In this document: positions 19,144 to 34,024 of the stretch, piece by piece
How the letters are laid out: the number at the start of each line of letters is the position of its first letter
Position numbering within the stretch: the first letter of the stretch is position 1
Sequence record: PZ027503.1
Length of the DNA stretch: 64,000 nt
Source of the DNA: a phage
Strand: one strand, 5' to 3'
The notes under the pieces: generated by a model
The model's input: only the letters and a program-made list of their open reading frames with translations
The model's database searches: none
Told to the model about the DNA's origin: nothing
Program-made: the position numbers and the translations under genes

Positions 19144-19146
19144 CCT

Positions 19147-21136: not shown

Positions 21137-21928
21137 TCCCATTGCCCCCAATAATTATTGCCATGCTAATGATCTCATATTGTAATTATTACAATGATTA
21201 TTGTTATTGCGCTAATGTTATGATCTTGGTAATTACATATAATGCTAATAATAAGCCAGCGCAATGAGTGTAAGCGTAATTACGCTTGCAATTATTGCAA
21301 GCTACGCAATAACAAGAAATAACCGTCACCGATGGTTATGATTGTTGGGGTGTAGTTGGCTTATTATTAGCTCGCTATGTGTCCGGCATAGCGTGCTAAT
21401 GATGATCCTGGGAATGATTCGTTTTGTAATGATTTCATTCAGTCACTATTATGGCAATAGTTATTATTTTAATGGTTTCGTTTGTTATTGTTCGTTAGTT
21501 GGTTGTTTTGTCGTGTTATCGTTATTTTGCTTAGTATTCATCATGGTTTGATTGTTTGTCGTTATCAATCATCTTGCTATTATTCCTTTGATTATGATTA
21601 GTTTGCTTATTGTTTTATGTTGTTTGTTGGTTAGTTGTTGCGAACTATTATCAACATTATAATTATGCGCTTATATTGCATAGATAATCATGGGTAGATG
21701 ATAATGGTTATCATTGCACTAGAAAGGAGGTAGAAGGGTGTTTTTGATGGTTTGTTGTTGGTTGTTGATCGATTTTAACCGCTATAAATGGCTCTCTAAC
21801 AGCCTGTTACCCTGGGAGGTATGGTTATTCGTTTAATGGTTGATTAGCTCGATACCGCGATTTATTCAATTTTGTTCTGTGTCGGTTTTTCATAGGCGAA
21901 AGCTATCAACATTGTTCGGGCAAAAAGA

Positions 21929-21949
21929 AAGGGCGCTTGGTGCGCCCTT
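21929..21949 (-). terminator. terminator at distal end of island
   Basis: AAGGGCGCTTGGTGCGCCCTT hairpin flanked by T-runs. Confidence 0.5.
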
Positions 21950-21962
21950 GTTTTGTTGTCAA

Positions 21963-22382
21963 TTATAACGCTTCATAGATTGAGTAGATCCGGTTTGCCA
22001 GGTCATTACGAAAGCGGAATTTTTCATCACGTTTGATCATCAGATCCTTAAAACCGCATTCTTTCAGTGCTTCATTAACTTTACTGCGGCATACTTTCAT
22101 ATTGTCCTGCGCGTCACCAATAAACTTGTTACTATGATGCATTGCTTTGATCTCTTCTTCCAGGACCAGGGCAACTACACGGATCGGATCAAGCTGATAC
22201 GCGGTAACATCCATGCGGCATTGTAAACGGCTTTTAACGTCTGCCACCGGATATACTGCAACCTCTTCCCCGTCAACGTTCACAATAACCAATTTACCAT
22301 CGATTTCGAAGCCTTTAGCGGCGCTACCGTGACAAAAAGCGTTGTCGAAGGAGTAAGCTGGATTATTTGATTTAATGTTCAT
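21963..22382 (-). CDS. hypothetical protein (139 aa)
   Basis: ORF track; promoter TTGACA inside hairpin at 22440-22470. Confidence 0.6.
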   Translation of the reverse strand: MNIKSNNPAYSFDNAFCHGSAAKGFEIDGKLVIVNVDGEEVAVYPVADVKSRLQCRMDVTAYQLDPIRVVALVLEEEIKAMHHSNKFIGDAQDNMKVCRSKVNEALKECGFKDLMIKRDEKFRFRNDLANRIYSIYEAL

Positions 22383-22492
22383 GGTGTTGTCCTTTGTTTC
22401 GTTTCGTTGTTTGCTGCCAGTGAGTTAAATATAATATAACGCCGATCCCCTGTCAATAGGGGATAGCGCATTATTTACATTTCTTTACGTTA

Positions 22493-22513
22493 AAGGGCGC
22501 TTAGTGCGCCCCT
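22493..22513 (-). terminator. stem-loop, weak terminator
   Basis: AAGGGCGCTTAGTGCGCCCCTT hairpin after stop at 22523. Confidence 0.4.
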
Positions 22514-22522
22514 TGTACAATC

Positions 22523-22891
22523 TTACTTTGTGCGGTTGTGAACGTTATCGCGTTCAACCATCAGGGCAAGGCGGATCAGTTGATCAGTTGTATCGCGTAA
22601 ATTGTCGGGCCATGTTTTACTGTTCCAGCTATCCATGTTTGATTGTATATAGGTTTCAATGGCTTGATCCATATTATCAAACAAGTTTTCCTCCAGGCTC
22701 TCGGCTGTTTCACACTGGAAAGCATTAGCGACACTATTAATCAATAAGCAAGCCAGTAAATCAGCATTACGCCAATTTTTACGGATAGTTTCATCTGTCA
22801 GATAACCAACGAGATTAACCTTTGCGCCAGTGGTTGACGTTGCGATCACTTCTTGTGCTTTTTCAAGTGCTTTAATTGCTGATTTGCTCAT
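22523..22891 (-). CDS. hypothetical protein (122 aa)
   Basis: ORF track frame; start at internal ATG with AGAGGAAAA RBS downstream of cassette. Confidence 0.55.
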   Translation of the reverse strand: MSKSAIKALEKAQEVIATSTTGAKVNLVGYLTDETIRKNWRNADLLACLLINSVANAFQCETAESLEENLFDNMDQAIETYIQSNMDSWNSKTWPDNLRDTTDQLIRLALMVERDNVHNRTK

Positions 22892-22906
22892 TTTATTTTC
22901 CTCTTT

Positions 22907-22969
22907 GTGGGCTTGCTGTATTGCTCGCCCTACGTGATAAATAATAATGTAAGCGTGATCCGGTGTCAA
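22907..22969 (-). promoter_or_regulatory. promoter plus degenerate 5' stem-loop cassette
   Basis: minus-strand TTGACA-N17-TATTAT then CCCTACGTGATA block. Confidence 0.45.
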
Positions 22970-23144
22970 TAGGTAGCATTGTAAAGATTTGATAGTTTAT
23001 TCCTTTGATGTTTTGTTGTTTGATAGATGTTAGCTATCAATATATGGCGGGGTCGTCCGGTGATTATCTTCCCCTGCTCCCAGGTGCCGCCCGTTCAATA
23101 AGTATAACAAAAAACAGGACAAAAACAAGCCCTGTTTATTTATC

Positions 23145-23264
23145 TTAAAACCAGTTGCCAACCGTTTCCAATAGGTCACTGACTACCAGGACAACATTGA
23201 TCAGCACATATTTAATCAGGAAGGGGATTAGCGCCAGCGCCGCTACTATGATCCCCATTGTCAT
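23145..23264 (-). CDS. membrane micro-protein (39 aa)
   Basis: hand-translated MTMGIIVAALALIPFLIKYVLINVVLVV...; GAGAAAGG RBS. Confidence 0.35.
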   Translation of the reverse strand: MTMGIIVAALALIPFLIKYVLINVVLVVSDLLETVGNWF

Positions 23265-23275
23265 GATTACCTTTC

Positions 23276-23566
23276 TCATTGTTGGCGGTTTACGTAAGCT
23301 TTACCGTTTACGGTCATCTGTATGGCTTCAAGGTCTGGATCTTCCTTAAGGTCGCGTGCAAGCTCACCGCAGCGGATACCCTCGAATCCGTAGTATTCTG
23401 TTTCCCCGTCCTTAAAAGTTTTAGCGGCAAGGCATAGGCGATAATTAACGCCGATCCGGTTTACCGCGTTGATATCGGTTAACGCGATGGATTCAGGCAA
23501 ATCATTAGCCATTACAGGCGCGTTAATACCAACAACCAGGGCAACTACTGCGATCATCTTTTTCAT
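23276..23566 (-). CDS. secreted protein with signal peptide (96 aa)
   Basis: ORF track; MKKMIAVVALVVGINAPVMA; hairpin 23597-23612 upstream. Confidence 0.6.
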   Translation of the reverse strand: MKKMIAVVALVVGINAPVMANDLPESIALTDINAVNRIGVNYRLCLAAKTFKDGETEYYGFEGIRCGELARDLKEDPDLEAIQMTVNGKAYVNRQQ

Positions 23567-23621
23567 GCTTTCTAGCCTCTTCCTATTGCGTTTAATGGGG
23601 CGTTACCGCCCCGCTTATGGT

Positions 23622-23858
23622 TTATTGATTGATGTTATAATGAAAATTATTTTCTTCAATAGCTTTTAAAATAAAAGCCGTGATCGCTTTCGTGTCTACT
23701 TGTTCGAACGTATCGGAATAGCACCAATAATGATCATCCCCTACTTTCGGCGGGTAAACCTGGACAAGGAGATCGCCACCTGGTTGATCTATAAGCTCAA
23801 CATGTAAGCCGGATGATTCAGCGGTTTTAACGGCGTTTAATACTGTTGCAATACTCAT
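23622..23858 (-). CDS. hypothetical protein (78 aa)
   Basis: ORF track; hairpin 23879-23894 upstream of RBS. Confidence 0.55.
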   Translation of the reverse strand: MSIATVLNAVKTAESSGLHVELIDQPGGDLLVQVYPPKVGDDHYWCYSDTFEQVDTKAITAFILKAIEENNFHYNINQ

Positions 23859-23902
23859 AATCTTTTCCTTTCTGATGTGGGGCGTTGCCGCCCCTTTGTT
23901 GA

Positions 23903-24202
23903 TTAGATCGCTGTTTCCAGTAGTTCGGCTAACGTCTTACCGCCTGATAGTTGGTCTAACGTTTGCTCTTCTGGCAAGAAATTAGCTGATATTAATCCGA
24001 CTTGATTCCCTTTGTGCCAATTGGCTTGACGGATGATTCCATCCTTTAAAGATTTTACCGCCATTGTGCAACCGTCGCCAAATGATTCATTTTTATGATC
24101 CATTACTTCATAAGCGCCCAGCTTGCTGCTGTTAGGCACCATCAACGCGAATACATCACCAACAACCAGTTTTTCTACGGTAACAATAGCGATAGTTTCC
24201 AT
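23903..24202 (-). CDS. hypothetical protein (99 aa)
   Basis: ORF track. Confidence 0.55.
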   Translation of the reverse strand: METIAIVTVEKLVVGDVFALMVPNSSKLGAYEVMDHKNESFGDGCTMAVKSLKDGIIRQANWHKGNQVGLISANFLPEEQTLDQLSGGKTLAELLETAI

Positions 24203-24219
24203 TTTACTTTCCTCATTAT

Positions 24220-24278
24220 CGGCGGCACCATTGCCGCCCTACGCATTAAATATAAGTTATCTAAGAGATTAGATCAAG
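24220..24278 (-). promoter_or_regulatory. promoter plus 5' stem-loop cassette
   Basis: hairpin GGCGGCACCATTGCCGCC 24221-24238; minus-strand TTGATC-N17-TATATT. Confidence 0.55.
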
Positions 24279-24280
24279 GA

Positions 24281-24472
24281 TTATTTTGTAAAGATTACAG
24301 CTTCATCAAAATTTTCAACATAGTAAGCAAGCTCCTCATTTGCTGCAACCATTCCTAAAAGTTGGCTATAAGATAAACCTTTGATCCCTTCCTCGTTGTT
24401 TAATGCTTCGATGATTTCATCAACGGGCGCAAAAAACATGTTATTCGATTCCAGGTAGGAGATGGTTTTCAT
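24281..24472 (-). CDS. hypothetical protein (63 aa)
   Basis: ORF track. Confidence 0.5.
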   Translation of the reverse strand: MKTISYLESNNMFFAPVDEIIEALNNEEGIKGLSYSQLLGMVAANEELAYYVENFDEAVIFTK

Positions 24473-24492
24473 AATGTTTACCTTTTTCGGGG

Positions 24493-24549
24493 AGCGGCAC
24501 CATTGCCGCCCTACGTGGTAAATATTAGCACACTGGCGATCTGTGTCAA
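24493..24549 (-). promoter_or_regulatory. promoter plus 5' stem-loop cassette
   Basis: hairpin GCGGCACCATTGCCGC 24494-24509; TTGACA-N16-TAATAT on minus strand. Confidence 0.6.
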
Positions 24550-24555
24550 TACTTT

Positions 24556-24942
24556 TTATTCAATATAAATCAAATTATCTTCACCAATGTAAGCCGACAC
24601 GTTCGGCATAAACTTAGCTGCATTGGTTAGGCGGTTCGCCGTGTTAGTGGTGTATATTTCAGGGCGATCCCAAAAGCCTACGCCGTGACTGTTACGGGTA
24701 AAATGTAAATCATTCCCGATCTGGTTGGCTGTTGCGCCGTCGCTCATTGCCTCAGAGATAGCGGCAAGATTAGCATTAATAAAGGCTGTTACATCCTGGG
24801 CGATCCGTTGATCCGCACTAGGAGAAAAATCATAATCGTCTAAGTTATCAATAAAATTACCTTCATAATCCCTTGCTGATTCAGCAAAAATAAAGGCTTC
24901 TTTATAGCCGTTGATGATTTCAATAATGATTTCTGTTTTCAT
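24556..24942 (-). CDS. hypothetical protein (128 aa)
   Basis: ORF track. Confidence 0.55.
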   Translation of the reverse strand: MKTEIIIEIINGYKEAFIFAESARDYEGNFIDNLDDYDFSPSADQRIAQDVTAFINANLAAISEAMSDGATANQIGNDLHFTRNSHGVGFWDRPEIYTTNTANRLTNAAKFMPNVSAYIGEDNLIYIE

Positions 24943-25154
24943 GCTGTACGCTCGACAATAATAATAGTTTGCGGGATCTCGTTTTCTACTACTAACAAGG
25001 CTTTTTTCTGTGTGATAGATATTTTAACACGTTGTAAAGTAGCGGTAAAATCTTTCATTTCATTATGCGCGGATTTAGTACAATGCCAGATCTCAGGTTT
25101 ACCAACTTGCAAGCCGCGTAAAAATTCCGTTTTACCTGTCTTATTCGTGATCAT
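24939..25154 (-). CDS. hypothetical protein (71 aa)
   Basis: ORF track frame; start at ATG 25154 with AAGGTG RBS. Confidence 0.5.
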   Translation of the reverse strand: MITNKTGKTEFLRGLQVGKPEIWHCTKSAHNEMKDFTATLQRVKISITQKKALLVVENEIPQTIIIVERTA

Positions 25155-25164
25155 TTGTTTCACC

Positions 25165-25269
25165 TTAACCGATACCGTGGGAAGATAGGATCATATTAGC
25201 CATAGTTGCAACTACTCCAACCGATAACGCCAGGCCAACCACTGCAACCGTGAAAATTTTCTCTAACAT
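25165..25269 (-). CDS. membrane micro-protein (34 aa)
   Basis: hand-translated MLEKIFTVAVVGLALSVGVVATMANMILSSHGIG; follows cassette. Confidence 0.35.
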   Translation of the reverse strand: MLEKIFTVAVVGLALSVGVVATMANMILSSHGIG

Positions 25270-25286
25270 GATTCTACCCTCATTAA

Positions 25287-25349
25287 TGGGCGTTGCACCA
25301 TTGCCCCGCCCTACGTAATACACTTTACCAGATAACAAACCATTGTCAA
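25287..25349 (-). promoter_or_regulatory. promoter plus 5' stem-loop cassette (variant)
   Basis: hairpin 25288-25311; TTGACA at 25343-25349 (minus). Confidence 0.5.
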
Positions 25350-25407
25350 GGTTTATTTACTACATCTTTTAAGCTGTATTTTTAAAATACAGCTTTCAGG
25401 CTGTCAA

Positions 25408-25578
25408 TTACTCTTCATCGTCGCCGTTATAGTATTCAATGCCGTTTTCATCGGTTACGGTGATGTTAACGCCACCGATAGCAACACGATCACGGGCAAA
25501 CGTCATAGCTTCGTTTAAATCTTCAGACCAAAAAATATTGTGACCTTTGCGCGATACATAAAACATAGTTGGGATCAT
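25408..25578 (-). CDS. hypothetical protein (56 aa)
   Basis: ORF track frame; start at internal ATG after cassette and AGAAGAGAAA RBS. Confidence 0.5.
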   Translation of the reverse strand: MIPTMFYVSRKGHNIFWSEDLNEAMTFARDRVAIGGVNITVTDENGIEYYNGDDEE

Positions 25579-25600
25579 GATTTGTTTCTCTTCTGTTGTG

Positions 25601-25662
25601 AGCGGTGGACCATTCCGCCGCTCTATGTAATAAACTTTACTACGTTGTTTGCCTACTGTCAA
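25601..25662 (-). promoter_or_regulatory. promoter plus 5' stem-loop cassette
   Basis: hairpin GCGGTGGACCATTCCGCCGC; TTGACA 25657-25662 (minus). Confidence 0.55.
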
Positions 25663-25663
25663 A

Positions 25664-25948
25664 TTATTTTTTAATGTTTTGCCCTACAAAATTGATCACT
25701 TCCTTAAGCTGTCTCTCTGTCATGATCGTACCTGGTAACTCTTCTTTAATTTCTTCCGGTAAATAAATATTACCGCGCCAGGTTAACAAACAACCGTTTT
25801 GATCTTCGCAGATAGAATAAGAAAACATCCACTCGCAATCATTCTCAAGCTCCCAAAAACACAAAAAGTCTTCTTTCCCTAAGTTTTCAACGGTTAAACA
25901 TAATCCGCGACGTGCTGCATAATTAGTTAGGCTTTTTGTGATTTTCAT
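25664..25948 (-). CDS. hypothetical protein (94 aa)
   Basis: ORF track frame; start at internal ATG downstream of hairpin. Confidence 0.55.
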   Translation of the reverse strand: MKITKSLTNYAARRGLCLTVENLGKEDFLCFWELENDCEWMFSYSICEDQNGCLLTWRGNIYLPEEIKEELPGTIMTERQLKEVINFVGQNIKK

Positions 25949-25970
25949 GATTTTTCTCTCTTCTGTTGTG

Positions 25971-26027
25971 AGCGGCACCATTGCCGCCCTACAAGATACA
26001 TATTATCAGACTACGCGGACTTGTCAA
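25971..26027 (-). promoter_or_regulatory. promoter plus 5' stem-loop cassette
   Basis: hairpin GCGGCACCATTGCCGC 25972-25987; TTGACA 26021-26027 (minus). Confidence 0.6.
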
Positions 26028-26028
26028 A

Positions 26029-26139
26029 CTATTTTTTCTTTTTCTTTGCTTCCAACCGTCTAAGGTTACGGCTTGACTTATTGCGCAAGGCGCTTAGATC
26101 GTCGTACCCTTTCCATGCTTGCATATCTTTCGGATTCAT
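26029..26139 (-). CDS. small basic protein (36 aa)
   Basis: ORF track frame; start at internal ATG with GGGGGATAAC RBS; K-rich C-terminus. Confidence 0.35.
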   Translation of the reverse strand: MNPKDMQAWKGYDDLSALRNKSSRNLRRLEAKKKKK

Positions 26140-26149
26140 GTTATCCCCC

Positions 26150-26428
26150 TTAACGATTATAAACATTATGGATGGCTTCAAAGGCAAGATGACCATAAGC
26201 CGCCAAATCGGGATTGATCCAAGCGTTATCCAACATCGTTTCAAGGACTGTGGAATCATCGTATAAAGCATCATAGAAATCTGCACGGATGATCGTTTCA
26301 ATGTCGTCCGGTGTTAGTTTGTCGTTCAACTTGCACACTGTTTCAACGTCAACACCAATTTTCCAATTTTGTAAATTAGTGGTTAACATTGTTTTCATTT
26401 CTTCGGTTGTTAATTTAACGATGGTCAT
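26150..26428 (-). CDS. hypothetical protein (92 aa)
   Basis: ORF track; cassette upstream. Confidence 0.55.
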   Translation of the reverse strand: MTIVKLTTEEMKTMLTTNLQNWKIGVDVETVCKLNDKLTPDDIETIIRADFYDALYDDSTVLETMLDNAWINPDLAAYGHLAFEAIHNVYNR

Positions 26429-26451
26429 GATTTTTTCTCTCTTCTGTTAGG

Positions 26452-26507
26452 CGGGGCGCTTGTCGCCCCTATGTGATACATCTTATCAGGTTGATTCAGC
26501 TTGTCAA
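26452..26507 (-). promoter_or_regulatory. promoter plus 5' stem-loop cassette
   Basis: hairpin GGGGCGCTTGTCGCCCC; TTGACA-N16-TAAGAT (minus). Confidence 0.6.
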
Positions 26508-26508
26508 A

Positions 26509-26670
26509 CTATTTGTTAGCCGGATTATATGCCAGGACCGCGCCGCTTGCTTTCACGCTTTCCGCTTCATAGTTGCGCAGATCGTTTTCTGTAAGATTGA
26601 GCGCGATCACTTCCTCAATCTCAACACCAGCGGCAATGGCGATCTCTTTGATAATGTCTGCTGTTTTCAT
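26509..26670 (-). CDS. hypothetical protein (53 aa)
   Basis: ORF track frame; start at internal ATG (MKTADIIKEI). Confidence 0.5.
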   Translation of the reverse strand: MKTADIIKEIAIAAGVEIEEVIALNLTENDLRNYEAESVKASGAVLAYNPANK

Positions 26671-26680
26671 GGTATGTACC

Positions 26681-26800
26681 TTATAAGATGATTGATAAGA
26701 TAGTGACAACGAAAGCGATTATACTGATGGCAAATGTCATCTTTTTACCTTCGGATACTGCCGGATTTTCTACCGTGTATTCTACTGTGTACTTGCTCAT
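26681..26800 (-). CDS. membrane-anchored micro-protein (39 aa)
   Basis: hand-translated MSKYTVEYTVENPAVSEGKKMTFAISIIAFVVTILSIIL. Confidence 0.35.
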   Translation of the reverse strand: MSKYTVEYTVENPAVSEGKKMTFAISIIAFVVTILSIIL

Positions 26801-26822
26801 CGTGTAATCCTCTCGTTTGCTT

Positions 26823-26880
26823 TGGGAACTATTCCCGCCGCCCTATGAATTAAATATACACTATCTCAAAATGATTGCAA
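26823..26880 (-). promoter_or_regulatory. promoter plus 5' stem-loop cassette (short stem)
   Basis: hairpin GGGAACTATTCCC; TTGCAA at 26875-26880 (minus). Confidence 0.5.
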
Positions 26881-26898
26881 GCCTTTTTCTAAATTATT

Positions 26899-27183
26899 TT
26901 ATGCAGTAAACAAACCATCATTTACAACGGCGGCGATGATCTCCCGTGCCATTGATTCAGGGAAAGGGGCGCTATAGTCCTGGCTTGTCTCATCGGTATC
27001 GGTGATCCAATGATAAGCTAACGAGTAAAAGCCTTTACTAACTGTTTTCAGTGAGATGATGATCACTCGGTCAAGCTTATTGGTGAATGTTGCCGTTAAT
27101 GTGTCACCCTCCTGCGTCATGTTGGACAAGTAAGCGGGATCATTAATCAGGGAAAACATTAGCACGGTGTTAGCTTTACTCAT
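26899..27183 (-). CDS. hypothetical protein (94 aa)
   Basis: ORF track frame; start at internal ATG with GAGGATG RBS. Confidence 0.55.
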   Translation of the reverse strand: MSKANTVLMFSLINDPAYLSNMTQEGDTLTATFTNKLDRVIIISLKTVSKGFYSLAYHWITDTDETSQDYSAPFPESMAREIIAAVVNDGLFTA

Positions 27184-27203
27184 GATTGCATCCTCAAAGG
27201 GGG

Positions 27204-27260
27204 CGCGGCACCATTGCCGCCCTACACGATAACTATAACACAATATAAAACAGGATCAAC
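27204..27260 (-). promoter_or_regulatory. promoter plus 5' stem-loop cassette
   Basis: hairpin GCGGCACCATTGCCGC 27205-27220; TTGATC-N16-TATAGT (minus). Confidence 0.55.
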
Positions 27261-27462
27261 CTTTATTTTTCCACGGTGTCAGCTTGTTAATCATTGGTGA
27301 TAAATAGCGTTTACCAACGTAAAACAGCACGCCAACTGATGCAACGGCGGCGACCTCATGCATAGCCGACGGGAAACGGGTATCATAATAAGATCCAATA
27401 ATAGCAATAGCGGCAACGGCTGCAACGTCGATAATGATTTTTTCTTGTTTTGCGGTGATCAT
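27256..27462 (-). CDS. small membrane protein (68 aa)
   Basis: ORF track; hydrophobic. Confidence 0.5.
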   Translation of the reverse strand: MITAKQEKIIIDVAAVAAIAIIGSYYDTRFPSAMHEVAAVASVGVLFYVGKRYLSPMINKLTPWKNKG

Positions 27463-27481
27463 AATATTTACCTTTTTGTAT

Positions 27482-27541
27482 GGTGGGGAACTATTCCCCG
27501 CCTGATGTAATACAGTTTAACAGGTCCGGTTATGGTGTCAA
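27482..27541 (-). promoter_or_regulatory. promoter plus 5' stem-loop cassette
   Basis: hairpin GGTGGGGAACTATTCCCCGCC; TTGACA 27536-27541 (minus). Confidence 0.55.
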
Positions 27542-27547
27542 CCACTT

Positions 27548-27733
27548 TTAAAGATATTTTATGTTAATGATGTTTTCAGGTTTTACCTTGTTATGATGTG
27601 CATCAACATAGATCAAACCATCGTCAGAAAAGCCCAGGATCACGCCCTGCGCAATAAAACCGTATTCGTCACGGTAACGCACGGCTATTTTTAATGTTGC
27701 GCTGTAGGCTGTTTTAAGCTCGTTTAAAGTCAT
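27548..27733 (-). CDS. hypothetical protein (61 aa)
   Basis: ORF track; GAGGAT RBS. Confidence 0.5.
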   Translation of the reverse strand: MTLNELKTAYSATLKIAVRYRDEYGFIAQGVILGFSDDGLIYVDAHHNKVKPENIINIKYL

Positions 27734-27753
27734 TTTTGTTTATCCTCTACATG

Positions 27754-27774
27754 TAAAAAGAAAGGGCGCTTGGT
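27754..27774 (-). terminator. intra-island terminator
   Basis: AAGGGCGCTTGGTGCGCCCTT hairpin followed by CTTTTTAC on minus strand. Confidence 0.45.
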
Positions 27775-27788
27775 GCGCCCTTGTTATG

Positions 27789-27935
27789 TTAATCCTCTAA
27801 ATCCATCCAATTATATTTGTCACTCTTCCCGCGCTTTGTTTTATTGCGCTTGTCGCCTTTGCGGATCACTTCCTCGTTCCAGGCCTTGCGGATCTTGGAA
27901 GATTGAATTTTTTCTGCGCGATTAGATGTATTCAT
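27789..27935 (-). CDS. small basic protein (48 aa)
   Basis: hand-translated MNTSNRAEKIQSSKIRKAWNEEVIRKGDKRNKTKRGKSDKYNWMDLED; AGAGGAAACA RBS. Confidence 0.4.
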   Translation of the reverse strand: MNTSNRAEKIQSSKIRKAWNEEVIRKGDKRNKTKRGKSDKYNWMDLED

Positions 27936-27954
27936 TTTGTTTCCTCTTTATATG

Positions 27955-28008
27955 AGCGGCACTATTGCCGCTATATTGTTAATTTAAACTGTTTTGTAAA
28001 ATTGTCAA
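27955..28008 (-). promoter_or_regulatory. promoter plus 5' stem-loop cassette
   Basis: hairpin GCGGCACTATTGCCGC 27956-27971; TTGACA 28002-28008 (minus). Confidence 0.55.
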
Positions 28009-28014
28009 GGTTTA

Positions 28015-28368
28015 TCATTCATAAGAGCAAGCAAGGATCACGCCTGCAATATAAAGCCAATAATTTTCCCTTTCTCGTTGGATTTTATCATCGCTGCTAT
28101 TCTCTTTAATGTATCCCCAGGATGTTAACAACCGATCTACTTCCCAATACTCGAAAGCTATATTAATATTTGACGGTAAACCTTGTAACCATGATGCTAT
28201 TGCTCTGATAATGTTATGATCGTAACGTTTTTGATTATCGGTGTACCAATATTCAGATTTAAAACAGCGCATCAATTCCGCGATCTTCTCTTTCTCTTCT
28301 GTGATGCCATACTCGCTATAATCAATTGAGGCCAGAATATAAAGTTTAATTGCATTTTGTGCTTTCAT
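28015..28368 (-). CDS. hypothetical protein (117 aa)
   Basis: ORF track. Confidence 0.55.
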   Translation of the reverse strand: MKAQNAIKLYILASIDYSEYGITEEKEKIAELMRCFKSEYWYTDNQKRYDHNIIRAIASWLQGLPSNINIAFEYWEVDRLLTSWGYIKENSSDDKIQRERENYWLYIAGVILACSYE

Positions 28369-28387
28369 GGTGTCTCTCTTCTGTTGT

Positions 28388-28445
28388 TGGCGGCACCATT
28401 GCCGCCCTATGTGTTACATCTTACCGGATTTTTAAAACTTGTCAA
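28388..28445 (-). promoter_or_regulatory. promoter plus 5' stem-loop cassette
   Basis: hairpin GGCGGCACCATTGCCGCC 28389-28406; TTGACA 28439-28445 (minus). Confidence 0.6.
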
Positions 28446-28667
28446 TCATTTTTCTACTATCATTTGATACCCTGTTTCCAGGTTAGTAAACACCGTGATC
28501 CCGTCCTGGCGTTCACTCATTAGCATACAAGGCGCTAACATCCTTTCTACTGCCTTGCACTCATTGTAAACGGCGGTTATGTCTCCTGCGGCCTTGTCTT
28601 CTGTGGTGAATGTATCGTTTACGTAAACCTGACCAGCGACAACGGCGACAATAGCGAAAGTGATCAT
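28446..28667 (-). CDS. hypothetical protein (73 aa)
   Basis: ORF track; MITFA N-terminus shared with next small ORF. Confidence 0.5.
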   Translation of the reverse strand: MITFAIVAVVAGQVYVNDTFTTEDKAAGDITAVYNECKAVERMLAPCMLMSERQDGITVFTNLETGYQMIVEK

Positions 28668-28700
28668 GGTGTTTCCTTGTTAGTAGTGGTTTCTCTTCTC

Positions 28701-28726
28701 TATAGCGCCCATTGTAAGGCGCTATA
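28701..28726 (-). promoter_or_regulatory. variant 5' stem-loop (TATAGCGCC/GGCGCTATA)
   Basis: inverted repeat immediately upstream of RBS of 28446-28667. Confidence 0.4.
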
Positions 28727-28734
28727 ACGAAAAG

Positions 28735-28908
28735 TCAACGATTATTTTTAAGGCTTAAAGTACCTAACTTGTCAGCATGACGCAGACCAGGGAAGATCCA
28801 TTTGCCTGATTCATCTTTTACAGGTGCTTTAAACGTAGCGCCCAGGTTGGCGGCGTTAATTTTACGGGCAACGTTGCGAGCGGCTTCACGGGTAGCGAAA
28901 GTGATCAT
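28735..28908 (-). CDS. small protein (57 aa)
   Basis: hand-translated MITFATREAARNVARKINAANLGATFKAPVKDESGKWIFPGL... Confidence 0.4.
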   Translation of the reverse strand: MITFATREAARNVARKINAANLGATFKAPVKDESGKWIFPGLRHADKLGTLSLKNNR

Positions 28909-28932
28909 GGTGTTTTCCTCTTCTCTTTGTTA

Positions 28933-28994
28933 GGCGGTGGACCATTCCGCCGCCTTGATGTAATACAGTTTACTTTATTTTTGCAGTATTGCAA
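28933..28994 (-). promoter_or_regulatory. promoter plus 5' stem-loop cassette
   Basis: hairpin GGCGGTGGACCATTCCGCCGCC; TTGCAA 28989-28994 (minus). Confidence 0.45.
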
Positions 28995-29000
28995 GCGGTT

Positions 29001-29213
29001 TTATGAAATAATCGTCAAAGTAAAATTGTAATCACCTGATTGATACAATACTTTATCACCGAACGTTCCAACACGTTTAACATTGCAATATATACCCATA
29101 ACACTTTTTACATCTTTGATATTCTTCACGCCTGTAATATCTTTATTAAAATGATCGTGATCAGAAAATAAAACTTGACTTGCATTTTTTAACAGTGTGC
29201 GGATATTAGCCAT
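29001..29213 (-). CDS. hypothetical protein (70 aa)
   Basis: ORF track. Confidence 0.5.
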   Translation of the reverse strand: MANIRTLLKNASQVLFSDHDHFNKDITGVKNIKDVKSVMGIYCNVKRVGTFGDKVLYQSGDYNFTLTIIS

Positions 29214-29237
29214 CGTAATAATCTCTCTTCTGTTGTG

Positions 29238-29294
29238 AGCGGCACCATTGCCGCCCTACGTAATATAGTTTACTCTTTTTCTTTCCCGTGTCAA
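29238..29294 (-). promoter_or_regulatory. promoter plus 5' stem-loop cassette
   Basis: hairpin GCGGCACCATTGCCGC 29239-29254; TTGACA 29289-29294 (minus). Confidence 0.6.
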
Positions 29295-29303
29295 CAATCT
29301 TTT

Positions 29304-29531
29304 TCAGATTAATTCATCCAGGCATAACAGGCGATCAACGTTGAGATCGGTTAGGCTGATGGTTGGCACCTGGTAGGATTCGATGTACTCGACGCTTGCA
29401 TATTCCCCAAAATTAGCAATAGCCCACTTATTCAAGATCTCACATACATCATTAATCTTTTTGTTTGTTACGACTGCAATAACCTGGGAAGTGCCAACGG
29501 TGCCGGATACGCGAACAATATTGATAGCCAT
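29304..29531 (-). CDS. hypothetical protein (75 aa)
   Basis: ORF track. Confidence 0.5.
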   Translation of the reverse strand: MAINIVRVSGTVGTSQVIAVVTNKKINDVCEILNKWAIANFGEYASVEYIESYQVPTISLTDLNVDRLLCLDELI

Positions 29532-29551
29532 AATCTTTAATCTCTCTGTTT

Positions 29552-29612
29552 TGGCGGGAAACCACTTCCCGCCCTATGTGATACATCTTACACTAATTTT
29601 AAACGTTGTCAA
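29552..29612 (-). promoter_or_regulatory. promoter plus 5' stem-loop cassette
   Basis: hairpin GGCGGGAAACCACTTCCCGCC; TTGACA-N-TAAGAT (minus). Confidence 0.6.
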
Positions 29613-29621
29613 CTGTTTTTA

Positions 29622-29861
29622 TTACATTCCAACCATCGCGGCACGGATCGCAGTAGTGCTATATTTGAAACCGTCTGGCGTTTTATCTTGTCCAGTTTGT
29701 TCCAGAAAAAGCATCATATCCCGCGCCGCATCATTACGATTAGCATTAGCGTTAATAAAATCTTGGGCCAACCGGTATAACGATTCATCGTTATTAATCC
29801 AAAGGCTTACATTCCAATGAGTTTTGTTTTTGTGACCGTTGTACATTTTAGATTTAGCCAT
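29622..29861 (-). CDS. hypothetical protein (79 aa)
   Basis: ORF track. Confidence 0.5.
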   Translation of the reverse strand: MAKSKMYNGHKNKTHWNVSLWINNDESLYRLAQDFINANANRNDAARDMMLFLEQTGQDKTPDGFKYSTTAIRAAMVGM

Positions 29862-29884
29862 GATTTTTCTCTCTTTTTCAGTGA

Positions 29885-29944
29885 GGCGGGAAGTGTTCCC
29901 GCTCTCTATGTAATACAGTTTACTCTTTTTATTCGTGCTGTCAA
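29885..29944 (-). promoter_or_regulatory. promoter plus 5' stem-loop cassette
   Basis: hairpin GCGGGAAGTGTTCCCGC 29886-29902; TTGACA 29939-29944 (minus). Confidence 0.55.
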
Positions 29945-29950
29945 TGCTTT

Positions 29951-30316
29951 TTATAAATCTTTTTTACGTTTTACATCGCTCGCATGACTGTATACAGTGA
30001 TCCCATTGTCACGGCAAAAACGGGAAAGGTAGGCATAATTTGAAAACTCTTTACCTTCCAGGTTGATAACCTTGCTAAACTCTTCTAGGGCAACGGTATC
30101 AAAATGATCACCATAGCCATATTGAAACGGAACGTTAACCACCTCGATCAGTTTACCGCCGATCTCAACGTCAACCATTAAAGAGAAATATGTGTTACCG
30201 TAGGACCGTTGAAACCAGCGACGGGCGCTAATGTGCACCGCTTCAATGCTGGATAATTCAATTTTAGCCGTGTTAGCCAGGGTAGCATAAGCGGAAACAT
30301 TGATATTAATAGCCAT
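29951..30316 (-). CDS. hypothetical protein (121 aa)
   Basis: ORF track. Confidence 0.55.
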   Translation of the reverse strand: MAININVSAYATLANTAKIELSSIEAVHISARRWFQRSYGNTYFSLMVDVEIGGKLIEVVNVPFQYGYGDHFDTVALEEFSKVINLEGKEFSNYAYLSRFCRDNGITVYSHASDVKRKKDL

Positions 30317-30341
30317 GATGATAATCTCTCTTTTTGGTTAG

Positions 30342-30394
30342 TGGGAAGTATTCCCGATAAAAGTTATTATGCTTATACTATCACTCATTGTCAA
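30342..30394 (-). promoter_or_regulatory. promoter plus 5' stem-loop cassette (short stem)
   Basis: hairpin GGGAAGTATTCCC; TTGACA 30389-30394 (minus). Confidence 0.5.
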
Positions 30395-30413
30395 TAGTAT
30401 AAGACTAAAACTT

Positions 30414-30593
30414 TTAACGATAATCGTTATAGGCTTTATTGACCTGGCGAATGTAACATTCGAAAGCAAGATCAATGTATTCGTATTCACGCACATAATC
30501 ACCATAGGTCACTACATACATTTTTAAAGTTTCCTCATAAGCCAGGAGGATCGAATCTAAACCTATAATCTCAGTTTTTGCAATGATAGCCAT
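30414..30593 (-). CDS. small protein (59 aa)
   Basis: hand-translated MAIIAKTEIIGLDSILLAYEETLKMYVVTYGDYVREYEYIDLAFECYIRQVNKAYNDYR. Confidence 0.4.
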   Translation of the reverse strand: MAIIAKTEIIGLDSILLAYEETLKMYVVTYGDYVREYEYIDLAFECYIRQVNKAYNDYR

Positions 30594-30612
30594 GATGTTA
30601 ACCTTTTATTGT

Positions 30613-30670
30613 TGGCGGCACCATTGCCGCCCTACGTGATAAACTATACCAGAAGTTTAAACAGTGTCAA
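30613..30670 (-). promoter_or_regulatory. promoter plus 5' stem-loop cassette
   Basis: hairpin GGCGGCACCATTGCCGCC 30614-30631; TTGACA 30665-30670 (minus). Confidence 0.6.
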
Positions 30671-30676
30671 CCGTTT

Positions 30677-31039
30677 TTATTCGTAAATTTTACCGCTTTC
30701 GGCCCATACCATAACGCGGCGCATACTATCCCAAGTGTTTTGATCCAGGTTTAAGCCGTGCAACTCTTCGGTACTTCCCAGACCAGGTACCGCTTTGTTG
30801 TAAGTCGCATATAAGCGCCCTTGATACTCATACGCCAGAGTAAGATCCGTTTGAATCATCTTTTTAAGCATAGCATTAAGCATCATATTAGCGGCATGTT
30901 GATCACGTTTTAGCGGTAACATATCAATAAGGGCGCGATAAGCTGAAACATGGATATCAACCGTTTCACGTGGTAAATTTTTCATATCATCGCGGAAAGA
31001 TACCAGATTAAATATGATAGTATTGATTTGCTTGCTCAT
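30677..31039 (-). CDS. hypothetical protein (120 aa)
   Basis: ORF track. Confidence 0.55.
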   Translation of the reverse strand: MSKQINTIIFNLVSFRDDMKNLPRETVDIHVSAYRALIDMLPLKRDQHAANMMLNAMLKKMIQTDLTLAYEYQGRLYATYNKAVPGLGSTEELHGLNLDQNTWDSMRRVMVWAESGKIYE

Positions 31040-31059
31040 TGTGTTACCCTTTTTTGTTT

Positions 31060-31121
31060 TGGCGGGGAAGTATTCCGCCGCCCTATGTGATACATCTTAT
31101 CAGATTAAAAAACGTTGTCAA
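31060..31121 (-). promoter_or_regulatory. promoter plus 5' stem-loop cassette
   Basis: hairpin GGCGGGGAAGTATTCCGCCGCC; TTGACA-N-TAAGAT (minus). Confidence 0.6.
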
Positions 31122-31129
31122 GAATATTT

Positions 31130-31225
31130 TTAGAAAATAATATCCGCTACTACAACCCAAAATGGAACGGCTAGAATGATAGCGTTAATCGTTCCAACCG
31201 TCAAGCTATTTTCTTTATTAATCAT
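31130..31225 (-). CDS. membrane micro-protein (31 aa)
   Basis: hand-translated MINKENSLTVGTINAIILAVPFWVVVADIIF; sits between two cassettes. Confidence 0.3.
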   Translation of the reverse strand: MINKENSLTVGTINAIILAVPFWVVVADIIF

Positions 31226-31253
31226 TGTAAGCCTCTTGCATAATTTCACTATG

Positions 31254-31311
31254 AGCGGCACCATTGCCGCCCTACGTGGTAAATATTATGCCAGTGGCGG
31301 CGATATGTCAA
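31254..31311 (-). promoter_or_regulatory. promoter plus 5' stem-loop cassette
   Basis: hairpin GCGGCACCATTGCCGC 31255-31270; TTGACA 31306-31311 (minus). Confidence 0.6.
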
Positions 31312-31865
31312 AGACTATTTTCAAAGTTTTCTAGTGCGATCCTTTTTTCTTCCTCTGTCGGCTGATAATCAGGAAAAGCATCAACACACAACAACGGCGG
31401 GATCTCTTCGTACTCTTCCTCTTCCGTTGTCTCCTCGTCTTCCTCCTGGGCTATGGCTGCAATTTTGGCTAATTTTCTTTCGGCTTGAATCAATTTACCA
31501 TCAAGTACGTTTTTTGCCATGTTGTAAGCGGTCCAGGTGATGCGCTTACTTTCCAACGCTTCATCAAGCGCCGCTATCTTGCTGGGGTATTCATCCAGGA
31601 CACGAAAAGCCGGATCAATTTTGTACAAAGGATTATCTTTCGCGCCGTCGCTTGCATCTTCCGCACTGGATAAATCAGCGTTACCATTTGCCAGCCAGCC
31701 AGGGCGCACATAACGCGCTTTTACGTTGCCGTTACTACGTGCTAATCTGTTACCTATTTGCTCACCGCTATATCCCGTGGATTCATCGATAAGATGATCG
31801 GGAATGATGCGCGGATCATCTGCTTCATGTTTTACCCAAGACTGGATCACATATTCGCGGCCCAT
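31308..31865 (-). CDS. hypothetical protein with acidic C-terminus (185 aa)
   Basis: ORF track frame; start at ATG 31865 with AAGGTGG RBS. Confidence 0.6.
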   Translation of the reverse strand: MGREYVIQSWVKHEADDPRIIPDHLIDESTGYSGEQIGNRLARSNGNVKARYVRPGWLANGNADLSSAEDASDGAKDNPLYKIDPAFRVLDEYPSKIAALDEALESKRITWTAYNMAKNVLDGKLIQAERKLAKIAAIAQEEDEETTEEEEYEEIPPLLCVDAFPDYQPTEEEKRIALENFENSL

Positions 31866-31866
31866 A

Positions 31867-32124
31867 TTAACCACCTTTTTTCAACAATTGGCATACTTTA
31901 AAAAGACTTGCTGAATCCTTGCAAGGGTAGAAAGATGTACGATAATCACGTACGCCAACCTTGCGGATCTCGATGTTCTCGCATGTTGTTTGATCAAAGA
32001 TATTTATTTCATCACGCCCCCTTATATAAACATAGTGGGGATGTATTAACGCATATTTTGCTAATCTGTAAAAAGCGTTATCTTTGAACGCGATCACGTG
32101 ACCTTTTAATTTGATGTAAAACAT
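31867..32124 (-). CDS. hypothetical protein (85 aa)
   Basis: ORF track. Confidence 0.5.
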   Translation of the reverse strand: MFYIKLKGHVIAFKDNAFYRLAKYALIHPHYVYIRGRDEINIFDQTTCENIEIRKVGVRDYRTSFYPCKDSASLFKVCQLLKKGG

Positions 32125-32141
32125 TCTACCACCTTACAAAT

Positions 32142-32197
32142 AGCGGGAACTATTCCCGCTTTATGTAACATATTAACAAATTATTCGTTAATGTCAA
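32142..32197 (-). promoter_or_regulatory. promoter plus 5' stem-loop cassette
   Basis: hairpin AGCGGGAACTATTCCCGCT; TTGACA 32192-32197 (minus). Confidence 0.55.
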
Positions 32198-32200
32198 GCC

Positions 32201-32473
32201 TTAAAGCAAAAACGCTACATCTTGCGCTTTTAGTGTAGTATCAACCATTTTCGGGCTTTTATAATCAACAAAGCGCGCGGTTTTTTCAATAGCGAAACCG
32301 AGATAATCTTGCTTGTTGAAATTACACTCTTTCTTAAATGTTTCCCGTGCAATGGCAATCGCTGCGTCCAGGGATAAACGCCCGTCAATATTGATATTAG
32401 CGAAAGATCCGCCACCGCTCATAGGTTTACCAGTTGTGCCAGCTACGATCATTGTTGCGCTATATGATGCCAT
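32201..32473 (-). CDS. hypothetical protein (90 aa)
   Basis: ORF track. Confidence 0.55.
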   Translation of the reverse strand: MASYSATMIVAGTTGKPMSGGGSFANINIDGRLSLDAAIAIARETFKKECNFNKQDYLGFAIEKTARFVDYKSPKMVDTTLKAQDVAFLL

Positions 32474-32497
32474 GATGATAATCTCTCTTCTGTTACG

Positions 32498-32557
32498 AGC
32501 GGGAAACCACTTCCCGCCCTATGTGATACATCTTATCAGGTTGTTGTTTGTTGTCAA
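32498..32557 (-). promoter_or_regulatory. promoter plus 5' stem-loop cassette
   Basis: hairpin GCGGGAAACCACTTCCCGC; TTGACA-N-TAAGAT (minus). Confidence 0.6.
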
Positions 32558-32563
32558 TACTTT

Positions 32564-32761
32564 TTATTCTATCCCTGCAATTTGATTAACGCGCTTGCAT
32601 TTTGTAGCGTGCTGGTCTTCTGTAATGACTCCCATTTCTAACAGGGAATCAATGAAAGATAAAACCGTTTCATGATCATCCTGGGGATGACTGAACTCAG
32701 TAAAACCGTTTACCACGACGCTGATTTGTCCTGCTTTCGCCACAATGTGCAATGTTGCCAT
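32564..32761 (-). CDS. hypothetical protein (65 aa), first gene of island
   Basis: ORF track; GGAG RBS. Confidence 0.5.
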   Translation of the reverse strand: MATLHIVAKAGQISVVVNGFTEFSHPQDDHETVLSFIDSLLEMGVITEDQHATKCKRVNQIAGIE

Positions 32762-33036
32762 GATTTTAACTCCAGGTGATGAATGATGTTTTTTGTTGGT
32801 GGACGGTGGATTATGGAGATCCTCACCTTTGCCCGTCCTGCATTGCGCCCCTCCTGTTGTTTATTGTCGTTGTGCCGCGCCCCCCTCGACAAGATGAATA
32901 CTACGCCACCAGGTGAGGAACGTCAACCACTTTTTCAATCTTTTTTATTTTCTTTTTTGCTTGCTGTATATGAAGGAAACGGCTATCATCTTTCTACCGC
33001 GCCAACCAGGGCGCACAACAAAGAAAGGGCGATACC

Positions 33037-33303
33037 ATGACAAATACTACATTACACCTTATGCACTCATTGGGCTGGCAAGGCGGCACGGTGCACCAGG
33101 TAGCAAGCGCAACGGGCTTAAAGGTTGAAACAGTTCTCAACCTGGGCGATCATAAGGTGGAAGAGATAGATCATTTTGATTCGTTCGCTGATGGTTATTT
33201 ATGGGCTTGCAGTGGCGGCGGGGAAAGCAAGATACCGCCAGGGGAGCGGGGTAATATGTATTTTTGGTTAGGTGTCCTATCCTGGCAAGAAGATAAAAAA
33301 TAA
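33037..33303 (+). CDS. hypothetical protein (88 aa)
   Basis: ORF track; isolated rightward ORF in hub, weak RBS. Confidence 0.35.
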   Translation: MTNTTLHLMHSLGWQGGTVHQVASATGLKVETVLNLGDHKVEEIDHFDSFADGYLWACSGGGESKIPPGERGNMYFWLGVLSWQEDKK

Positions 33304-33552
33304 TCTTGACAAGCCCAGGGATCGGGCTTATACTGTTTTACATACAGAAGAGGAAGCGCCACCCCACGGCGTAAAGGCGGGGCTAACATACCAGGGCGCT
33401 GGTTGGAAGGTTGATCGCCGGTAGGCTGGGCGCTATATATTTGTAAAGAAATGTAAAGATAAAATAATCGCTTGCTTTCCTGGCTGGATCTGTTATTCTT
33501 ATTACATGGCGAGGGGACACGGGAGCGCGAGACAAACACCACCCCTGCGCGT

Positions 33553-33670
33553 CATTCTCTAGATGAGAATGATTATCATTCACCTTATTAAATAAGAATC
33601 AATCTCATTTATAAACTTAAATGCGAATCATTATCATTTGCATTTCCATATGAGAACTCTTCTCATTCTC
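33553..33670. promoter_or_regulatory. cluster of operator-like palindromes (TCATTCTC/GAGAATGA, GAATGATTATCATTC, GAATCATTATCATT)
   Basis: overlapping inverted repeats seen in sequence; same motif family as 20681 and 20863. Confidence 0.45.
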
Positions 33671-33686
33671 ACCTGCATAAATTTTT

Positions 33687-33863: not shown

Positions 33864-34024
33864 AATTCTTAAAAAGTTTAAATAATTTGAGGGATTTTTG
33901 AGATAATGGATAGTGGGAATTTGATATAACCTTTAATCTTATTAGTAGACCTTCAGGAACCCACTTAGATCGAATCCTAGTGATGCAAACTGAAAAAGAT
34001 AAGGGTTTGTATAGGACAAAATAA

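Follow-up and report, generated by a model that had tools for sequence, protein, structure and literature searches.

The 64,000-nucleotide stretch of phage DNA analysed here (record PZ027503.1; the whole stretch is termed the window) contains, between about 22 and 33 kb, an island of small open reading frames (ORFs) lying between two non-coding regions, referred to below as the left and right hubs. A preliminary description of the locus viewed the island as a hyperplastic module, possibly acquired or exchanged as a block, whose ends coincide with regulatory hubs, and the question raised is whether this or a different organization accounts for its features. The data presented below indicate that the island is probably a cassette array built on PeSL-type units, the repeated promoter and stem-loop motifs of phages RB49 and phi1, in a phage family where such arrays were previously undescribed, and that it adjoins the genome terminus. 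From 20 to 35 kb the window displays 94-97% nucleotide identity to genomes of Phapecoctavirus (phAPEC8-like E. coli myoviruses of ~150 kb in the Stephanstirmvirinae), the closest relatives being Mt1B1_P17, UP17 and P3322.

The array, defined by the ORF list in combination with PHROG comparison, occupies 21963-32761 on the minus strand and comprises ~34 genes encoding proteins of 31-185 amino acids (median 78). PHROG families were found for 32 of the 34, showing that the island ORFs are real conserved genes; a single 'membrane protein' is the only function label among them, and a Pfam search with the ten largest island proteins revealed no domain. The coding fraction of the island is 0.74, compared with 0.90-0.94 in the flanks, where genes abut or overlap in operon style, whereas those of the island are spaced 76-98 nt apart. 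The coordinates of the island as originally drawn, ~11 kb of small ORFs, are essentially right. The plus-strand ORF that had closed it, 32783-33040, has no PHROG match and is probably not a gene; the stretch is better described as a divergent promoter region (32762-33036), which bears the minus-strand promoter of the first array gene (32926-32898) and, by eye, a candidate plus-strand promoter and hairpin for gene 33037.

Most of the intergenic spacers of the island, read on the minus strand, are copies of one ~85-nt unit. In each unit the preceding gene's stop codon and a short run rich in A lead up to TTGACA; a TAAGAT-like hexamer stands 16-17 nt further on, and GTATCACATAGGGCGG then leads into a GC-rich stem-loop; after the stem-loop come an A/C-rich leader, AGAAGAGAGA, 5-8 nt and ATG. 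The spacers that consist of units, 76-98 nt in length, open with AAAGTA, AAATATTC or TAAAAACAG ahead of TTGACA. Alignment identified 21 units in the island and one elsewhere, on the plus strand at 55051. The promoters of the 21 island units conform to TTGACA or TTGCAA, N16-17, TAnnnT, with TG preceding the -10 hexamer in nine. A strict scan, requiring a promoter and a perfect GC-rich stem at the right distance, returned 15 units across the window (14 within the island), whereas shuffled sequence yielded 0.3. Promoter matches of at least 10/12 numbered 24 on the gene strand and one on the opposite strand.

All of the island units lie on the minus strand. Unit alignment, folding and the strict scan together identify those at 25946-26027, 26426-26507, 27460-27541, 27933-28008, 28366-28445, 29211-29294, 29529-29612, 30591-30670, 31223-31311, 32122-32197 and 32471-32557. 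Alignment and folding identify the promoter-hairpin-Shine-Dalgarno (SD) unit before gene 22891 (22889-22969), the unit before gene 24202 (24200-24280, weak -35), and units at 25267-25349, 26798-26880 and 28906-28994 (both with a TTGCAA -35) and 30314-30395 (weak hairpin); the unit at 25576-25662 was additionally compared with its orthologue. The unit before gene 24472 (24470-24549) was located by alignment and the indel map, that before gene 29861 (29859-29944) by the strict scan and a match to phage WPEC3, and that at 31037-31121 by alignment and orthologue comparison.

The hairpin begins at a fixed distance, ~11 nt past the -10, placing it at ~+4 of the predicted transcript. When the units were folded individually the stems extended over 5-9 bp with a mean folding free energy of -12.6 kcal/mol (mean z -2.8 against shuffles). 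Of the 22 hairpins, 21 are distinct in sequence, with stem types that include GCGGCA-ATGG-TGCCGC, GCGGGAA-TAG-TTCCCGC, GCGGGAAA-TGG-TTTCCCGC and GGGGCG-ACAAG-CGCCCC, and across loci the inner stem pairs vary in a compensating fashion. In the orthologous units of the Justusliebigvirus Paula the promoter and SD are retained, while the stem is of a different type yet still pairs, as illustrated by CGGCGGA..TCCACCG versus CGGGAAA..TTTCCCG in orthologous stems of the two genera. RNAalifold predicted no pairs in a MAFFT alignment of the units, in which stems of unequal length were misaligned, and thus the structural comparison relies on per-unit folding and on orthologues. No U-run follows the unit hairpins on either strand, and on the gene strand the terminator scan flagged none of them. 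It found only three intergenic terminators of canonical form on that strand: 21949-21929 (AAGGGCGCACCAAGCGCCCTT followed by TCTTTTT), which closes the array, 23137-23112, an insertion hotspot in relatives, and 27782-27762, a duplicate of the first. The array-closing terminator is copied almost exactly in mid-array (21922-21957 versus 27755-27790, 35/36 nt, 97%), and a third, diverged copy at 22486-22521 is a deletion junction in phage anhysbys. ARAGORN detected no tRNA genes in the whole window, ruling out a tRNA cluster as the source of GC-rich hairpins in an AT-rich phage, and a search of the whole window against Rfam gave nothing at the gathering score.

The evolutionary behaviour of the units was explored through an indel map constructed from chained alignments against nine Phapecoctavirus relatives. 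The island displays 18 distinct indel events, mostly one gene in size (200-360 nt), and 29 of the 36 island breakpoints are intergenic, where 25% would be expected (p = 5e-12). At several junctions the two flanks have 16-38 nt of the repeated unit in common. At the 24256/24494 junction, for example, the overlap is 35 nt common to two neighbouring units, and gene 24472 is missing in four relatives. Chimeric units also occur: in Paula the unit ahead of the orthologue of gene 32473 carries a promoter half that the window has in its unit at 31121, and this half therefore precedes a different gene in that phage. At the level of sequence, this breakpoint pattern is the signature of recombination between repeated units.

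Variation of island content is set within a constant framework. The locus of the array, its orientation and the two hubs are the same in all Phapecoctavirus relatives examined and in Justusliebigvirus, and Vequintavirus contains a homologous terminal gene and a leftward small-gene array beside a gene-poor stretch. Shared island DNA is ~94-95% identical to that of close relatives, as are the flanks. Among database records, at least 80% of the query is covered in 12 of 290 for the island, compared with 34 of 132 and 56 of 127 for flanks of equal length. The island is not, however, uniquely plastic, a view that is rejected by the indel densities in the nine relatives (per kb per relative, 0.37 in the island, 0.40 in the left flank, 0.16 in the right flank and 0 in the right hub). 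The designation of the island as a hyperplastic module is supported in part, by its distinct architecture (one promoter-hairpin unit for each gene), its composition and its variable content. The left flank (8000-20341) shows gene-sized indels, several with junction overlaps of 12-28 nt, and as it lacks units its plasticity must use other repeats. One of its junctions, 20001/20310, sits between genes 19639-20022 and 19997-20341; the orthologues of both in phage anhysbys are labelled VOG7392, and the two genes may be tandem paralogues.

The organization described above resembles that of the PeSLs. In RB49 and phi1 these are motifs repeated in hyperplastic regions, each combining an AT-rich stretch upstream of a consensus sigma-70 promoter with a stable stem-loop and closing with the SD and initiation codon of a small gene whose function is unknown. 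They fall into five subclasses by the position of the stem-loop, one with it downstream of the -10; indels of single genes accompany them, and mini-circles are produced (Arbiol et al., PMC2839356). PeSLs were subsequently extended to T4/PST and KVP40/nt-1 (Comeau et al., PMC4122927). In a full-text literature search the term 'PeSL' appeared in only three papers, two on T4-like phages and one on a cyanophage, and the rV5 paper, which reports promoters, terminators and a 'non-coding' box, describes no such units (PMC3606486). The window contains all of the features by which a PeSL is recognized in sequence: promoter, stem-loop, AT-rich and SD ends, a hyperplastic location and unit-associated indels. 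The island is likely, in our view, to be a hyperplastic early-gene region of monocistronic cassettes in which units mediate gene gain and loss, the mechanism by which PeSLs operate in T4-like phages.

In the mechanism proposed, each cassette would comprise a small accessory gene and an ~85-nt unit whose sigma-70 promoter is close to consensus, in many cases with an extended -10, such that host RNA polymerase could transcribe each gene independently straight after infection. By analogy with E. coli 5'-terminal stem-loops, which act against RNase E, the 5'-proximal hairpin, ~4 nt from the end of the mRNA, may stabilize these short transcripts, and it may also damp read-through from upstream units. 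Direct repeats of the unit, present in ~20 copies, would allow homologous recombination to delete, insert or swap single genes; a moved gene would retain its own promoter, and exchange would be possible with other coliphages that bear similar units.

Several observations weigh against this interpretation. The left flank has no units yet an equal indel density, and hence this genome can be plastic in the absence of units. The prevalence of intergenic breakpoints may in part reflect selection against indels that disrupt genes rather than a preference of recombination. Some 12 island genes have no unit; each of these either abuts or overlaps its upstream neighbour or comes after a terminator. Most RB49 PeSL hairpins lie between the -35 and -10 and have been shown to be terminators, while those of the window are in the 5' untranslated region (5' UTR) and lack a U-run; their function may differ. 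Finally, for this phage the activity of the promoters, the early timing and what the hairpin does are predictions from sequence.

The base composition of the island is also distinctive, a property noted by eye in the preliminary description and upheld on calculation. Island GC is 0.414, higher than in any of the 307 non-overlapping 11.1-kb windows (0.383-0.398). The excess is driven by third codon positions (GC3), at 0.416 compared with 0.32-0.36 elsewhere, and the per-gene GC3 median is 0.41 against 0.32 for the rest (Mann-Whitney p = 2.6e-9), although per-gene GC within the island is spread from 0.30 to 0.475. Codon usage is shifted towards CTG (0.42 in the island versus 0.28 in the rest), CCG (0.37 versus 0.12), CGC (0.46 versus 0.14), GGC (0.30 versus 0.11), ATC (0.56 versus 0.32) and AGC, with no shift for Phe, Tyr, His, Lys, Glu or Gln. 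The hairpins are, as had been stated, GC-rich. The hubs are AT-rich only mildly, with GC contents of 0.362 (left) and 0.354 (right) compared with 0.392 for the window; their gene-free nature is supported by the annotations of relatives, none of which contains a gene in the left hub (20342-21928) or in the right hub (33304-34107, the latter reaching slightly further than proposed).

The nature of the left hub redefines the position of the island. The Mt1B1_P17 record carries an exact 328-bp repeat at both ends and the Schickermooser record an exact 329-nt repeat at both ends, and each maps to 20626-20953 of the window. For Schickermooser, abrupt read ends served to place the ends of the genome, and its terminal repeat is reported as 328 bp (PMC6563267); direct terminal repeats are general in Stephanstirmvirinae (PMC12695924). 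The segment 20626-20953 is thus one copy of the direct terminal repeat, marking the physical ends of virion DNA, and the left hub holds the physical genome terminus. As the window contains a single copy internally, it crosses the junction of the genome ends, consistent with a circularized or concatemer-type assembly. It follows that the island is the left-terminal ~12 kb of a linear genome, transcribed towards the left end, and not an insert between two internal hubs; neither hub belongs to the cassette system. To the left of the repeat, 20342-20625 is non-coding DNA (no ORF in relatives, promoter-like sites weak only) that leads to the operon of the other end, whose first gene is 20341 (minus strand), and hence the left-flank operon begins beside the right genome end. 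To its right, 20954-21928 is a non-coding spacer, G/T-rich on the plus strand, that extends to the end of the array. A variable spot lies just inside the repeat, where 20960-21165 is replaced or shortened in Mt1B1_P17, Ro121c4YLVW and SKA64. The only Rfam match in the left hub was a chance-level snoRNA (E = 0.1).

These data bear on the other explanations that may be considered for the locus. Acquisition or exchange of the island as one block, the hubs being recombination or regulatory boundaries, would be in keeping with its own composition (GC 0.414, GC3 0.41) and with two non-coding ends that have a palindrome family in common. It is very improbable, however, as neither the locus nor the orientation of the array changes among the Stephanstirmvirinae genomes examined, with a homologous terminal gene and array in Vequintavirus, relatives differ by single-gene indels, per-gene GC is heterogeneous, identity to close relatives is equal inside and outside the island, and the left 'boundary' is a genome terminus. 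A simpler view of the units is that the hairpins are ordinary terminators or insulators and that the array simply repeats promoter, gene and terminator, contributing neither to recombination nor to mRNA stability. Similar intergenic hairpins are indeed labelled terminators in the Paula and Murica records, and strong termination was measured for one PeSL stem-loop that has no obvious U-run context (PMC2839356). The hairpins of the window, however, lie past their own -10 and would end their own transcript, they are followed by no U-run, and the breakpoints and chimeric units show that the units take part in recombination; the terminator interpretation is therefore regarded as unlikely.

Translational selection might account for the island's composition in place of foreign origin, if immediate-early genes use host-preferred codons as they are translated before phage tRNAs exist. 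The shift does run to codons common in E. coli (CTG, CCG, CGC, GGC, ATC), and relatives possess 10-13 tRNA genes (PMC6563267). As the codons of six amino acids are unshifted, per-gene values are very heterogeneous, and several genes are common with the GC-richer Vequintavirinae (the rV5 genome has a GC content of 43.6%, PMC3606486), so that the shift can be put down just as well to mixed gene pools, translational selection is somewhat doubtful as the cause; it addresses composition only and is compatible with a cassette array. The elevated GC3 could derive from mixing with GC-richer phage gene pools such as that of rV5, from host-codon selection in early genes, or from both. A further possibility relates to DNA entry, in that the island and right hub could be a first-step-transfer region like that of T5, the leftmost ~8% of the genome entering first and injection pausing at a repeat-rich hub. 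Measured from the left terminus, the right hub lies at 12.7-13.5 kb in a ~151-kb genome (8.4-8.9%); the first-step-transfer region of T5 makes up 7.9% and finishes in untranslated DNA crowded with repeats and palindromes (bioRxiv 10.1101/866236), and the island genes are small with strong sigma-70 promoters. The agreement in percentage may nevertheless be a coincidence. Of the DnaA boxes (TTWTNCACA), eight conserved copies of which define the T5 stop region, the window contains six (10.7 expected by chance) and neither hub contains any; the terminal repeat, 328 bp long compared with ~10 kb in T5, does not include the island; and no homologue of A1 or A2 was identified among the island proteins by PHROG, or by Pfam for the ten largest. 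A T5-like role is consequently highly improbable, and a cassette array of PeSL type remains the preferred explanation.

The distribution of island sequences suggests that exchange may extend beyond the lineage. An island query matches 290 records, compared with ~130 for the flanks, and the additional matches are to Vequintavirinae (rV5-like), PBECO4-like jumbo phages and PGT2, in the form of single genes with 80-90% nucleotide identity. In Justusliebigvirus 34-42% of the island is covered at ~87% identity, but just 2-20% of the flanks at ~80-85%. In the jumbo phage WPEC3 the match to gene 29861 runs on through its unit at 82.5%, and neighbouring WPEC3 genes have similar units (TTGACA..TATAAT..GGGGAATAGTTCCCC..SD). 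The island is thus more variable among close relatives and more similar across distant ones, which fits a horizontally traded pool of accessory genes. We suggest, tentatively, that the units might be a shared 'recombination currency' of unrelated virulent coliphages, a recombinase-free, integron-like cassette pool spanning families. Such a pool, were it to exist, would possibly include Stephanstirmvirinae, Vequintavirinae, RB49-type T4-like phages and PBECO4-type jumbo phages, and co-infecting phages would trade single genes through homologous recombination in their similar ~85-nt units. The better cross-genus conservation of the island than of the flanks, the joint presence of gene and unit in a jumbo phage and the 15 nt shared with RB49 are all compatible with this view.

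The sole unit outside the island (55051-55129, plus strand), detected by the strict scan, precedes the gene for a 324-residue multi-pass membrane protein (55051-56101, plus strand), which by eye is TerC-like (YVLEKSLSVDNL motif); the AT skew at 55-56 kb, -0.197, is similar to that of the island.

At the opposite side of the array, gene 33037 (33037-33303, plus strand) encodes a small protein of 88 amino acids and unknown function (PHROG 19316). It is followed by the right hub, at the start of which is a strong plus-strand promoter (33306-33334, TTGACA-N17-TATACT) with a stem-loop, AAGCCC..GGGCTT, in its spacer. This promoter is invariant across genera, and the ~250 nt that follow it, 33335-33580, are a non-coding stretch that is nearly invariant between Phapecoctavirus and Justusliebigvirus, in contrast to adjoining coding DNA, which is only ~72% identical. 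The right hub contains no convincing ORF and has no Rfam match at E up to 1. Folding of the conserved segment was no better than that of shuffles (z-score -0.64), and a structured RNA is rejected; the segment might instead serve as an origin, as a site for packaging or regulation, or as an RNA without structure. The right hub is, in summary, a conserved non-coding transcription unit. Beyond the conserved segment are two 72-nt repeats (33680-33889), 138 nt apart and 82% identical, that together hold four AAACTTTAAAT boxes; across the whole window this box is not above chance, and only its local clustering is noteworthy. The repeats also bear TTTTGTAAA motifs in very AT-rich DNA and have an iteron-like appearance. 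The hub is closed at 34027-34051 by a putative bidirectional terminator, recognized by eye from its imperfect stem (GGCTCTCTAC..GTAGGAGCC) and the T-rich tail that each strand shows; the terminator scan left it unflagged owing to a bulge. Further into the right flank, the length of gene 35198-36270, which records of relatives call an endonuclease or homing endonuclease, is variable, and 35955-36270 differs in anhysbys; this suggests a mobile endonuclease locus.

The two hubs do, as initially observed, carry palindromes of the same family. The sequence TGAGAATNATTATCA, allowing up to two mismatches, occurs at eight distinct sites, seven of which are in the hubs (20685, 20864, 21125, 21639, 21699, 33564 and 33622). 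The chance expectation for the whole window, from dinucleotide shuffles, is 1.3, and none of 100 shuffles reached the observed count. The form common to both hubs is TGAGAAT-N-ATTATCA. Two copies revealed by the motif scan, TGAGAATAATTATCA (20685-20699) and TGAGAATGATTATTA (20864-20878), fall within the terminal repeat, and those at 21125, 21639 and 21699 are in the adjoining spacer; in the right hub the sites are TGAGAATGATTATCA (33564-33578) and TGCGAATCATTATCA (33622-33636), the latter labelled repeat_region in phage anhysbys. The palindrome is related to the E. coli Fur box, GATAATGATAATCATTATC, which in its 7-1-7 form is TGATAAT-N-ATTATCA, and the hub palindromes agree with this at 13-14 of the 14 specified positions. 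Sites with at least 14/19 matches to the Fur 19-mer number 22, with 11 in the hubs, which represent 3.7% of the window; they often overlap with an offset of 6 nt, and the best agreement noted, 16/19, is at 33565-33583. Arrays of this type, consisting of overlapping NATWAT-type hexamers, cluster at 20680-21713 and 33559-33668. The half-site ATGAGAAT alone shows no enrichment over chance in the window as a whole, its local clustering alone being of note. In both hubs the palindrome is probably, as predicted from its sequence, recognized by one and the same DNA-binding protein. The four strongest hub sites (20685, 20864, 33564 and 33651) have G where Fur boxes have T (TGAGAAT), and the Justusliebigvirus hub motif, ATGAGAA..TTCTCAT, is unlike the Fur box, which points to a different binding protein; a binder other than Fur, possibly phage-encoded, would be at least as likely as Fur itself.

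Some records that match the window are named after other hosts (Campylobacter, Klebsiella, Acinetobacter, Pseudomonas or Enterococcus phage, for example B15, ABPW7, PsgM04F and heks). Most are 94-96% identical to the window, with PsgM04F at 87.7% and heks at 86.7% over a short stretch, and several of these records probably have a wrong host label or are contaminated or chimeric assemblies.

The assignment of the island to the PeSL class would extend a type of gene shuffling documented only in T4-like phages to the phAPEC8/phi92/rV5 group, members of which are widely isolated for therapy and biocontrol. It would explain why near-identical phages differ in their content of 'hypothetical proteins', where new genes insert and how these come to have their own promoters. 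The array is a natural place in which to search for host-takeover and anti-defence genes, and its units offer a handle for engineered insertions. The finding that a hub is the genome end bears on annotation, on the choice of the genome start coordinate and on synteny comparison.

Comparison with the prototypical PeSLs reveals both shared and divergent properties. RB49 units, examined directly, read TTGACA-GGGGATCnnnGATCCCC-TATAAT...GGAGAATCAAA; at ~65-90 nt they contain the same parts as the units of the window (stop codon, A-rich stretch, sigma-70 promoter, stem-loop, SD and ATG). In both systems the units are concentrated among small genes of unknown function, with 21 of 22 in the island here, and in both close relatives differ by single-gene indels with junctions in the units. 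Three promoters of the window are RB49-like in sequence itself: 22428-22456 on the minus strand (TTGACAGGGGATCGGCGTTATATTATATT), whose first 15 nt (TTGACAGGGGATCGG, from 22456) are identical to PeSL206/205, and those at 22969 and 33306. The spacers of these promoters (22428-22456, 22941-22969 and 33306-33334) contain GGATC, and each holds a GATC Dam site. The spacer stem-loop of the promoter at 33306 is the commonest layout in RB49 PeSLs, while 21 of ~24 units of the window have the hairpin downstream of the -10, in the 5' UTR, an arrangement that is listed as a subclass in the PeSL paper and is uncommon there. The phages that harbour PeSLs are circularly permuted Straboviridae, whereas the window derives from a member of the Stephanstirmvirinae with short terminal repeats.

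Two further systems offer parallels to the position of the island. The pre-early region of T5 is likewise the terminal ~8% of a large lytic coliphage, with small genes, host-type promoters and a non-coding border rich in repeats and palindromes; the phage of the window, however, is a myovirus of a group in which two-step entry is not known. In rV5 the 'non-coding' box of the genome map is associated with a skew change, although the genome was treated as circularly permuted and no function was offered for the box (Kropinski et al., PMC3606486). This box corresponds to a gene-free region of ~1.5-2.5 kb beside the homologue of the last island gene (in Murica), and in Phapecoctavirus the homologous region holds the terminal repeat.

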